The translations under genes and the position numbers were made by a program. Of a DNA stretch of 64,000 nt, positions 43,201-45,940 are shown one piece after another (the stretch's first letter is position 1; every line of letters starts with the position of its first letter). The notes beneath the pieces were generated by a model. That model did not search any database and was not told where the DNA came from. It saw nothing but the letters and a program-made list of their open reading frames with translations. The stretch comes from Phoronis australis (Eukaryota; Animalia; Phoronida): positions 124,001 through 188,000 of the forward strand of contig NMRA01000012.1 of NCBI GenBank assembly GCA_002633005.1. Direction: 5' to 3'.

Positions 43201-45940
43201 ACAACAGTTTTTCATTGAGATTGCAAAACTTGTCAAACGAAACTAAACTGAGCCCATATATCAAAACAGATAGCATGAATAACAGAACAGGAAAAGCACA
43301 TAAAATAAACCATAAGCTTAACTTATACAACAATAACTAATGGTAATTTGCTATTCTTATTTTTAGAGAAAATGAAATAGCACCTGATCAACCTTTGGTA
43401 GACTCAGTGTCACTAAACACAAGTACAGAGATTGAAGAGAGGGGGGTGTGGTGAAACTAAAAAATGCTAATATAAACTAATCATGCTGTGTACAGCGGAA
43501 TCATCAGGCATGAGCTGGAGCCAAAAGCCACTAGACAGGCAGTCACAGAACACAATCCGTCATTTGGTGAAGACATGATAAACAAAGGGTAAGGAATCCA
43601 AATAGGGACAGGACTGTGACGAGGGCCAATATCTTGTGCACGTTTCAAAATCTAAGATTATCATTTAGAAGAGAATCGCCAACTTTCACTGGAGAAGTAA
43701 AAACCAGGCATCAGTGGCTGGTGACCCCAGTCACGCCTCAGTCCCAATTGGGATTTCTTACCCTTGCTGGGTGTGGGTTTGTTAGTTCCTGAGTCAGCAT
43801 GATTGCACTGTGATGACACACTCGACATGTCGTCCATATCCAGCACTATTCCACTGTCCCGATTGCGTGCCTTTATCGGCAGACTAGTCCTTGTATTGCA
43901 GTTCGCACTGTTTACAAACTGACCACACTTTTCACACATAATAGTAGGAAAGCCATGACTTTCCTCTCGTTTGTCAATACACTGCTGCTCCACGACTGTC
44001 TGAGGGGACTCGTACTCAGACCAACTGTCTGCCTCTGACGACACACTCTCAAAACTTAGCTGCCTAATGCATGCTCTTTTCCGCCTGTGTTCACACACTG
44101 CACAAGTGTACATTTCACAGCGACAGTTCTCAGGTGGATCATTCTCGTGCAGTGTTAAATCAATAATCCTAAGCACCCTGTCCATGTCAACAGCATTGTC
44201 TTTGTCGGGGGTCTCCAAATCCCCCATGATGGAATACATGATATCCCCGTCTAGCGACCCACCAAGGTCATCGTCTTCATAACCAGAGTCACCTAATACA
44301 TGTTATTACATTTGCAAAAGACAAGTCATCTTCCCAAAATTGATGATCACTTTGTAGCCTACTCAAACAAATGATTAGGGACAAACAAAATTGAATTTGA
44401 AAGCTTTTGTGTTTGAAGAGAACCATTACAGATACAGTAACAGGGGAATGGAAGACAATACAGTAAAACTCACGTAAGACGGACCCATCCAGACAGCATG
44501 ATTTCGTACAGTGAAATCCAACTTATCTGAAGAGCCAAGTGCATGAAGTAGAACAGTTGCCTGAGAAACCATATTTGAGTTAAGGGCTACAACGACTAAT
44601 GCATGTTCCGACTTACACGAGAATTACTGTAGGTTACTAACAGTGAAGTCGATGAGTTATTGGATTAAAGAGAAAACACTGGCATGTACTGTAGCACGCC
44701 TTGTGTACAAACGTTCACAGTTGTTCATAGTTGATGCCACTTACCAAAGCCATCGTCTCCAATGAGAGTTATATTGCCAAGGTCTTCTCTAATTGTGATC
44801 TCCTCTGGACGACTCTGGTTGACTGAGAACTGAGCTTGTACGTCAATGTCGCTGTGACAACCACAAAATTGAGTTACTATGATGTCAGTGAAATGACATG
44901 GTTAAACAGATCGACAGATGCCTAAATCAAATAGATGCTTCCACCGAGAAGCAAAATTACCAGATCCTTAAAATGATTAAATGTCACAATTGCAACTGTA
45001 ACGCATACCAACATATGAAAATACCCAAGTATTGACCAGATTCCAGCTCTCAGAGGTGGGCCCTTTGTGATAAACAATCAGAATCAAAACTTCTCGTACA
45101 AAACATCTGCTCAATCTTAATGCCAGCGGGTACACTGTTCATGAATAAGGTATAAAAAAATTGTGAATTACGATTACTCAGAAATAGGAACTGCAGCTTG
45201 TTAACAGTCTTACTTGAGGTCGGCCATTGTAGTGTCAAAGTCATGGAAGTTCTCAGGTAAAGTAATGGCAGTCACCGCTGCTTCCCTGTTGTCTTCTGGC
45301 AGGTCCACAATGCCTGGACGAAATGCCATCTTTATCTTGACAAACGCCTCATTGCAGTCTGCCAGTAAATACTTGGCTTTTCGTGAATATATTCGCACAA
45401 CCCCCAACAGCAAGTGTCCCGATGTGCGCAGCGCCATTTTCACCTGTAATATCAGGGAAGTAATTAAAAGCAGTAAAGCCTAGTACAAGAAATGACCAAG
45501 TAACTTTACAAACAGTTTCGTAAAAATAATCGCAGGCAAGGTATCATGCACACGAGCCACAGGATCAAGTGTATGAAGCCCTTTCTTTGACAATCAATAT
45601 ACCCATGAAACGGATTCATGTGAATGATTTGCATTTGTATAAATGCGTGCATGGTTTGTGGGCATGATTTCTACATGTGATGCTTGAGCATGGAACTGCT
45701 CAGCACACTTGAAAAGGTATACCAAGAAATTACAAGGAATCAGAAAACTACAAAGGTCTTAAGAAGGGAAAATCACCCAAGCTGTTTTAGACAAACCTTG
45801 GGCTGAAGAATAGCCTCAACGCTGCTGTCAATGTTGGTTTCAAACACATGGGCCTTTGTTAACTTCTTGTCCCAGTGGGCTGCCAGCCAGATACGGGCCA
45901 GCGGTCCTCTTTTGCTCAACACAAAGTGAGCGTAAAACAT
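34280..45940 (-). CDS. RAD21: Cohesin kleisin RAD21/Scc1, 618 aa; coding exons 45797-45940, 45214-45443, 44745-44851, 40456-40653, 39850-39921, 37923-38030, 37334-37483, 36874-37100, 36285-36405, 35704-35807, 35161-35274, 34280-34561
   Basis: N-terminus [49 protein letters not shown]; middle [33 protein letters not shown]-terminal winged helix [24 protein letters not shown]. All introns are GT-AG and phases sum to 1857 nt including TAG. Confidence 0.96.
38570..38890. mobile_element. Degenerate pogo-like MITE fragment
   Basis: CCGTAGATAAGCCCG, AATAAACACCCGGGCGTT and TAAACGCCCAGGGGCGTT subterminal motifs. Confidence 0.4.
41175..41587. mobile_element. Kolobok-like non-autonomous transposon, copy with its interior replaced by an N (41374)
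   Basis: TTAA|GGTAGGTGGATACAC ... GTGTATACACCTACC|TTAA; both halves are nearly identical to the ends of 60085-62039. Confidence 0.85.
42303..43095. mobile_element. Non-autonomous hAT-like transposon with a 5-bp TSD and an internal ~16-bp tandem repeat
   Basis: CTAAC|CAGGGTTCCCCCT ... AGGGGAAACCCTG|CTAAC; (CTAGCGATCATTTTTA)-like repeats at ~42845-42970. Confidence 0.8.
43661..44292 (-). CDS. RAD21: Candidate alternative RAD21 exon (terminal, or a 531-nt cassette if the donor after 43762 is used)
   Basis: TAG acceptor at 44293-44295 in the phase 1 required by exon 44745-44851. The frame stays open for ~210 codons. The first 20 nt are 17/20 identical to the canonical next exon. Internal phase-1 donor G|GTAAGA. 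Confidence 0.7.
44461..44629. mobile_element. Tc1/mariner-type MITE
   Basis: TA|CAGTAAAACTCACGTAAG ... CTTACACGAGAATTACTG|TA. Confidence 0.75.

Follow-up and report, generated by a model that had tools for sequence, protein, structure and literature searches.

The RAD21 locus and its alternative exon

We analysed a 64,000-nucleotide (nt) window of the Phoronis australis contig NMRA01000012.1, in whose coordinates all positions below are given. Its minus strand carried the gene for the cohesin kleisin RAD21, from 45940 to 34280. In addition to the exons of the canonical protein, this gene possessed a genuine alternative exon that was spliced onto coding exon 3. Probably this exon acted as an in-frame cassette that lengthened RAD21 from 618 to 795 amino acids (aa), and RAD21 models of a nemertean, an annelid and molluscs carried inserts that were homologous by sequence at the same insertion point.

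Canonical RAD21 was encoded by twelve coding exons, each AG/GT bounded, in frame and free of internal stops. RNA reads were mapped over 39800-46400, and the exons below 39800 were defined by frame and splice sites.

45797..45940, minus strand: RAD21 coding exon 1 (48 aa), where the N-terminal SMC3-binding domain begins; junction to exon 2 present in reads
45214..45443, minus strand: coding exon 2, with 88-95% identity to lophotrochozoan RAD21 bearing PF04825; junction reads present
44745..44851, minus strand: coding exon 3, ending in phase 1 within the Gly161 codon
40456..40653, minus strand: canonical exon 4, beginning [13 protein letters not shown] and carrying the ExxR separase-type site
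40616-40627, minus strand: ExxR separase-type site of exon 4, aligning to human R172
39850-39921, 37923-38030, 37334-37483 and 36874-37100, minus strand: further exons, AG/GT bounded and in frame
36285-36405, 35704-35807, 35161-35274 and 34280-34561, minus strand: further exons, AG/GT bounded and in frame

The exons within 34280..39921 (minus strand) encoded the SA-binding middle region and the C-terminal winged helix, which were retained in the cassette form. In a tree of 22 RAD21 proteins, where arthropods were the sole outside group and deuterostomes were not included, P. australis RAD21 was placed among lophotrochozoans with no phylum resolved.

The 4.1-kb intron past exon 3 contained a frame (44302..43661, minus strand) that was open for 213 codons. 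Of 9043 minus-strand positions sampled, about 0.01% were open for at least 209 codons. Two stops immediately preceded the TAG acceptor of the alternative exon (TAG at 44293, first exon base 44292), which was in phase 1 following 481 coding bases. The donor of exon 3 was common to the alternative exon and exon 4. These features agreed with the initial annotation, where a frame of about 210 codons behind a phase 1 TAG acceptor was described and read either to its stop or through an internal donor. Both readings could be joined, and none of the three resulting forms had an internal stop (370 aa with a terminal exon, 795 aa with a cassette and 618 aa for the canonical protein).

43762..44292, minus strand: alternative exon of 531 nt (177 aa), most probably used as an in-frame cassette, with evidence from 5' junction reads, depth and homologous inserts
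43756..43764, minus strand: internal donor AGG/GTAAGA, in frame and putatively used
43661..43761, minus strand: read-through tail of 32 aa plus stop, translated only when the 43762 donor is unused

The donor after 43762 had the top score of the 89 GT sites in 44292-43100; its value was 4.9, while the correctly placed donors of the same gene scored 1.6-8.8. The length of the read-through tail was ordinary because 18% of positions were open as long by chance, and relatives offered no counterpart to its 32 residues (best E 0.5). Neither AATAAA nor ATTAAA was present in the 710 nt following the stop of the terminal form.

As noted in the initial annotation, the first 20 bases of the alternative exon were identical to the exon at 40653 at 17 positions and in the same phase. 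Of the 217 20-mers in the intron that were anchored on an AG, no other matched as well, the runner-up reaching 11/20. However, the similarity to exon 4 faded past these bases (18/30, 20/45, 25/60) and was absent on the intron side. The proposed origin by exon duplication is therefore possible only: the phase and the start are consistent with it, but it would rest on 20 bases encoding a short acidic-Gly motif, and an old duplication could have decayed.

RNA evidence for the alternative exon

Three paired-end RNA-seq runs (X2, X3 and X4) with the same species label were used, each read to about 18%. The junction from 44745 to 44292, for which the initial annotation had recommended a search in RNA, was present in all three (4, 2 and 1 reads, seven in all). 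The canonical junction from 44745 to 40653 had 72, 88 and 56 reads (216 in all), giving an inclusion of about 3% (2-5% by run). The run labelled X1, from which contigs were used, had the canonical form only.

Depth over the alternative exon came from the sense strand only. Inside 43808-44269 it was 13.7/7.6/4.1 (X2/X3/X4), as compared with 6.4/2.4/1.4 in the non-repeat part of the upstream intron, 4.7/3.3/1.0 between the 43762 donor and the stop, and 8.4/3.4/1.2 beyond the stop. Thus, sense depth in 43808-44269 was 2-3 times the intron level and was back to that level past the donor. No poly(A) or transcript end past the alternative exon was present among the ends listed, at low depth. Among the read differences listed, the alternative exon had one, which was synonymous (43976, Ile), and the non-repeat part of the upstream intron (452 nt) had at least 10 substitutions and 2 indels. 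Taken with the relatives described below, these data make it probable that P. australis uses the 43762 donor and produces an in-frame cassette.

The surrounding intron also differed from its neighbours. Outside repeats, 40654-44744 had 5-10x sense-strand RNA coverage, whereas two neighbouring introns had 0-2x, suggesting slow or regulated splicing. Repeats with reads from both strands were located in this intron at about 41126-41788, 42231-43114 and 44468-44599.

A second site of alternative RAD21 splicing was observed past the exon ending at 40456, where either a 72-nt acidic exon (39850-39921) or an 18-nt micro-exon (40000-40017) was used. The acidic exon had 24/20/32 reads in X2/X3/X4 and the micro-exon had 62/39/0. 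Both were in frame, yielding 618 and 600 aa, and a similar acidic exon of 21-24 aa distinguished the RAD21 X1/X2 model pairs in five molluscs.

Homologous inserts in other RAD21 proteins

Queries with the alternative peptide alone found no homologue in word-index searches, in HMMER over 1.84 billion representatives, in Pfam or in the ESM Atlas. Homologues emerged only when exon 2 was used as a query and the sequence was then read past residue 161. The exon 2 search returned 3367 RAD21 proteins, and among the best 120 of them 15 had an insert at residue 161 (162 in Ridgeia). The carriers were Lineus (a nemertean), Ridgeia (an annelid tubeworm), Liolophura (a chiton), two scallops and ten gastropods. 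The Lineus insert had a start identical to that of P. australis ([12 protein letters not shown]). Insert length in relatives was 110-444 aa with the frame kept, compared with 177 aa in P. australis. Fourteen of the 15 inserts rejoined the canonical exon at GD[VIM]GFD, and cluster look-ups added 11 insert-bearing members, all of which rejoined it as well. Insert-containing RefSeq models were present in ten species, and RefSeq models usually rest on RNA-seq. Each arthropod sequence among the 120 top-ranking matches (of 3367) was a single isoform, so that any lack of the insert in arthropods applies to those isoforms only.

When the inserts of the 15 relatives were made into a profile, with P. 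australis omitted, the alternative frame scored 33.2 bits (E 2e-9). Among the 718 open reading frames (ORFs) in the window the second-ranking one had 4.6 bits, and the best of 1000 shuffles had 14.3. The match stopped at residue 178, which corresponded to the proposed donor. The initial annotation had offered a 177-aa in-frame insertion through the 43762 donor as one option, and both the relatives and the end of the profile match favoured it. Since 14 of the 15 inserts rejoined the normal next exon, the conserved form would be the in-frame cassette of 795 aa rather than the 370-aa form. By sequence, RAD21 models from nemertean, annelid and molluscs thus shared homologous inserts at the same insertion point.

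One molluscan model differed in another respect. The Octopus vulgaris RAD21 model CAI9721990.1 (548 aa) had no C-terminal winged-helix Pfam match; it stopped well past the SA-binding region and had no relation to the alternative exon.

Anatomy of the insert

The insert began with a short acidic stretch similar to the start of canonical exon 4. This was followed by a conserved module and a more variable part with several short motifs.

44150..44266, minus strand: conserved, predicted helix-loop-helix module with an L/F-G-x-x-hydrophobic start, weakly EF-hand-like and without calcium ligands
44093..44125, minus strand: Cys cluster [11 protein letters not shown]; a CxxC..C pattern was also present in the pulmonate/sacoglossan/Aplysia and Ridgeia inserts
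43838..43858, minus strand: DSGIVLD, an acidic-type motif resembling a beta-TrCP degron; relatives had DSG[IVL]x[VL][DE] and DSG[IL]G[LM][ED]SDPG

The module comprised about 40 residues. Positions 9, 13, 18, 21, 22, 34 and 39 were always hydrophobic in the 16 aligned rows, and G10 was invariant. A profile of this module alone scored 39.6 bits on the alternative frame, compared with 7.7 for the next ORF and 6.4 for shuffles. In the P. australis exon peptide, AlphaFold2 placed two helices, at residues 15-23 and 36-47, with a predicted local distance difference test score (pLDDT) of about 70. Two helices were also present, at low confidence, in a full-length chiton RAD21 model, which was used for helices only. 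The mean pLDDT was low for both the peptide (56.8) and the chiton model (40.6).

Compared with PDB sequences, the module profile weakly matched centrin (PDB 1oqp) at its last EF-hand (E 0.031). Loop position 12 was never D or E in the 16 rows, and loop position 1 was acidic in two of them. None of the rows had an EF-hand family in Pfam, where a per-row scan gave sub-threshold matches to MAGP, PHB_acc_N and Novirhabdo_Nv only. An 86-aa insert model had no match in Foldseek and a single row in VIA (Z 2.1), with no EF-hand row in either; these searches neither named nor excluded a fold. Designed Pizza proteins were rejected as PDB relatives of the insert, the match being a sum of six sub-threshold repeat matches. 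A resemblance of [10 protein letters not shown] to a cyclin-binding motif was dropped as the stretch was not conserved in the alignment.

Cysteine accounted for 4.9% of the inserts and 0.46% of the short isoforms. In addition to DSGIVLD, the P. australis exon had DSGYED at its start and DSGTNK at 43795, and the DSG motifs were located in the variable, unstructured, Ser/Asp-rich part of the insert. All 16 inserts (of 16) carried DSG[ILVFY], with 28 sites in total; in 2000 shuffles the mean was 0.72 and the maximum was 6. These sites came from related sequences and were not independent. The same pattern was absent from 20 short RAD21 isoforms (13,302 aa). Conservation was found C-terminal of DSG, with a hydrophobic and then an acidic or Ser residue, and the residues preceding D were variable. 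In 13 of the 15 relatives the motif had the form DSG-hydrophobic-x(1-3)-S, mostly DSGIGLESDPG. Reported beta-TrCP degrons include DSG(X)2-4S and, as an acidic variant, DDG-phi-X-D (PMC10487276). The DSG motifs of the inserts resemble such degrons, and their phosphorylation, binding and turnover are predictions.

Position of the insert within the kleisin

Gly161 of P. australis RAD21 aligned with human G161. Since residues 154-171 of RAD21 are reported to bind NIPBL (PMC10003631), the insert would split the predicted NIPBL-binding segment. Judged by sequence, the insert itself supplied a look-alike of the second half of this segment. This would be a possible functional reason for the 17/20 match, so that no recent duplication would be needed.

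For separase, docking sites on RAD21 have been described from P7 on and on the C-terminal side of the cut (PMC12609080). Like the cleavage site itself (human R172), they follow the insert and would therefore stay in the cassette form. In the 795-aa model, the PF04825 domain, the SA-binding region, the ExxR site and the winged helix were all in frame, and the corresponding chiton regions (SA-binding, ExxR and winged helix) aligned to human RAD21. The terminal 370-aa form, on the other hand, would lose the separase site, the docking sites, the SA-binding region and the winged helix.

Proposed mechanism and competing explanations

We give about an even chance to an explanation in which the alternative exon is a low-abundance RAD21 cassette that produces a longer, ring-closing kleisin with predicted SCF-beta-TrCP destruction tags. 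Use of the 43762 donor in P. australis would yield 795 aa, in which neither SMC-binding end would be disturbed, nor the SA-binding region, nor the separase site. Within the unstructured part rich in Ser and Asp, a kinase would then phosphorylate the serines of the DSG motifs, beta-TrCP would bind, and this kleisin pool would be degraded; its cohesin could therefore be removed or kept scarce without separase. The position of the insert in the NIPBL segment, together with the two-helix module, would probably also alter the binding of the loader or of a regulator. There is a precedent in the Drosophila condensin II kleisin Cap-H2, which is reported to be degraded by SCF-Slimb via DSGISS, with flanking Ser/Thr needed, and to have one splice form without this site (PMC3613687). 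More tentatively, we suggest that lophotrochozoans may have kept a splice-made second full-length kleisin since before the mollusc/annelid/nemertean split, with an SCF-beta-TrCP switch, a helical interaction module in the loader-binding segment and removal independent of separase and WAPL.

A number of observations weigh against the degradable cassette. The return junction from 43762 to 40653 was absent among the junctions listed in the three runs, a weak but real objection, since a junction was apparently listed only when a single run held three reads of it, and the chance of a miss at equal use was 0.15-0.20. The depth fell gradually from about 43870 without a step, so that some doubt remains on donor use. 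The three runs came from a single study and were read in part, and the relatives were known as protein models, with species names taken from source labels. The Plakobranchus model GFO10313.1 (369 aa) ended within the insert. Another 22 cluster members examined had no insert, among them the X1 models of Mytilus, Tubulanus, Littorina and Babylonia and an Owenia model; therefore the exon may be patchy or lost. As to the degron, DSGIVLD, DSGYED and DSGTNK of P. australis had no second serine, with Asp in its place in DSGIVLD, and the Bradybaena and Plakobranchus inserts were likewise without a serine-type site. Moreover, four of the 28 DSG sites were the GDSG at the exon start.

It is possible, although rather doubtful, that the cassette acts through partner binding and not through degradation, changing the affinity for the loader or PDS5, recruiting a new partner or mediating kleisin self-association, with DSG as a phospho-docking, adaptor or caspase-type site. 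The helix module was the best conserved part of the insert across three phyla, two helices were predicted in both the P. australis peptide and the chiton model, and the insertion fell within RAD21 154-171. The weak centrin match is of interest here, as unpaired EF-hands often pair up. Some proteins with beta-TrCP motifs are reported to be adaptors or pseudo-substrates (PMC10487276). However, the pattern of conservation around DSG, located on its C-terminal side, resembles that of a degron, the structure models had low confidence, and no Pfam EF-hand family was assigned to the 16 rows. An improbable explanation is the one favoured by the initial annotation, where the exon is terminal and the 370-aa product, an N-terminal fragment able to bind SMC3 but not to close the ring, is a cohesin decoy with a novel C-terminal module. 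The frame did stay open for 32 codons beyond the donor, the return junction was missing from those listed, sense reads extended to about 43100, and the Plakobranchus model provided a possible parallel. In 43100-43660 two substitutions and one indel were among the differences listed, which may reflect constraint or just low depth. Nevertheless, nearly all relatives rejoined the next exon, and among them was Elysia, which is closely related to Plakobranchus. The tail was unconserved and of chance length, polyadenylation signals and listed transcript ends were lacking, and depth beyond the stop was close to that of the unspliced upstream intron. For isoform D of Cap-H2, a comparable decoy role has been tested and found no support (PMC8559962). 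Thus, the decoy proposal was not supported, and the ring-closing cassette was the better explanation of the same frame.

Two further explanations treat the protein as incidental. Inclusion without the 43762 donor would create a premature stop, and RNA decay could then tune the level of RAD21 as a poison exon or a detained intron does. The elevated sense coverage of this intron and the inclusion of just 2-5% are in line with such a device, which is nonetheless somewhat less probable than the decoy. The inserts of 110-444 aa kept the frame and shared a conserved residue pattern and motifs across phyla; a decay device needs no conserved peptide and would therefore leave this unexplained. Finally, the exon could be a neutral relic, a piece of a transposon, or an ORF that is open by chance and spliced leakily, considering that junction reads were few and three large peptide-only protein searches had no match. 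We consider this very unlikely and largely refuted by position-exact homologues in three phyla. The multi-copy transposon match that would have argued for it according to the initial annotation was not found: there was no match to a transposon protein, the reads were one-stranded, the exon belonged to no repeat family among those listed for the window (the 20 largest of 25 direct and the 11 inverted), and its start was single-copy within the window.

Other features of the window

At 23985-24917 (plus strand), two ORFs resembled exons of a putative pyrroline-5-carboxylate reductase gene, a label based on the ORF text only. Tandem arrays at 4217-4850, 20150-20420 and 58415-59340 (periods of 14, 2 and 36 nt, respectively) yielded long spurious ORFs.

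Comparison with known systems

Cohesin leaves chromosomes via separase cleavage and WAPL, and specialised cohesins arise from paralogous kleisin genes. If the proposed mechanism were true, a splice-encoded RAD21 bearing a degron across a superphylum would represent a third removal route and a further means of making specialised cohesins, new in kind, in parallel to the control of the fly condensin II kleisin by Slimb. This could be tested directly, given that the exon, the motifs and the species range are defined and that Aplysia, Biomphalaria, Lymnaea and scallops are kept in laboratories or aquaculture. If the degron step were wrong, an ancient exon splitting the NIPBL-binding segment would still be a natural experiment on loader binding.

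Neither an insert in lophotrochozoan RAD21 nor a RAD21 beta-TrCP degron was the subject of any paper that we found in the open-access literature, a body of text in which subscription journals were mostly outside and supplements such as splicing tables were not covered. The isoforms of relatives were public as automated models, and the exon appeared to be annotated yet undescribed. These RefSeq models, named 'rad21 homolog isoform X1/X2' (XP_064652431.1 from Lineus, XP_064597082.1 from Liolophura, XP_005103220.1 from Aplysia, XP_050412571.1 from Patella and XP_021343514.1 from Mizuhopecten), were similar to the P. australis cassette in the insertion point, the N-terminal module and the DSG motifs. 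They differed in being automated, with no described function, in the variable length of the insert and in having mostly the serine-type motif that P. australis lacked.

The module weakly resembled this EF-hand of centrin in its LG-x-x-hydrophobic start and in the similar spacing of two predicted amphipathic helices, but it had no loop ligands and was a single motif rather than a pair. Likewise, the degrons described for CDC25A (DSG-X4-S and DDG-phi-X-D) and ATF4 (DSG-X3-S) (PMC10487276) matched DSGIGLES, DSGLGLDS and DSGVGFS of the relatives in spacing and in the hydrophobic position. In contrast, DSGIVLD of P. australis, a candidate degron, had Asp at the place of the second Ser.

With REC8 and RAD21L the cassette form would share the possibility that a second kleisin form gives a cohesin pool its own regulation. 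However, REC8 and RAD21L are described as separate meiosis-specific genes, while the RAD21 cassette would be a splice form that keeps all of the canonical sequence. The closest parallel was Cap-H2 (PMC3613687; PMC8559962), also a kleisin with a DSG-hydrophobic motif in some splice forms that is missing from another. The Cap-H2 site is C-terminal, belongs to the main forms and is reported in these sources for Drosophila only, whereas the RAD21 motif was located in an optional internal exon of a minor form, beside a helical module, and across three phyla. Degradation has been shown for Cap-H2 and is predicted for RAD21.

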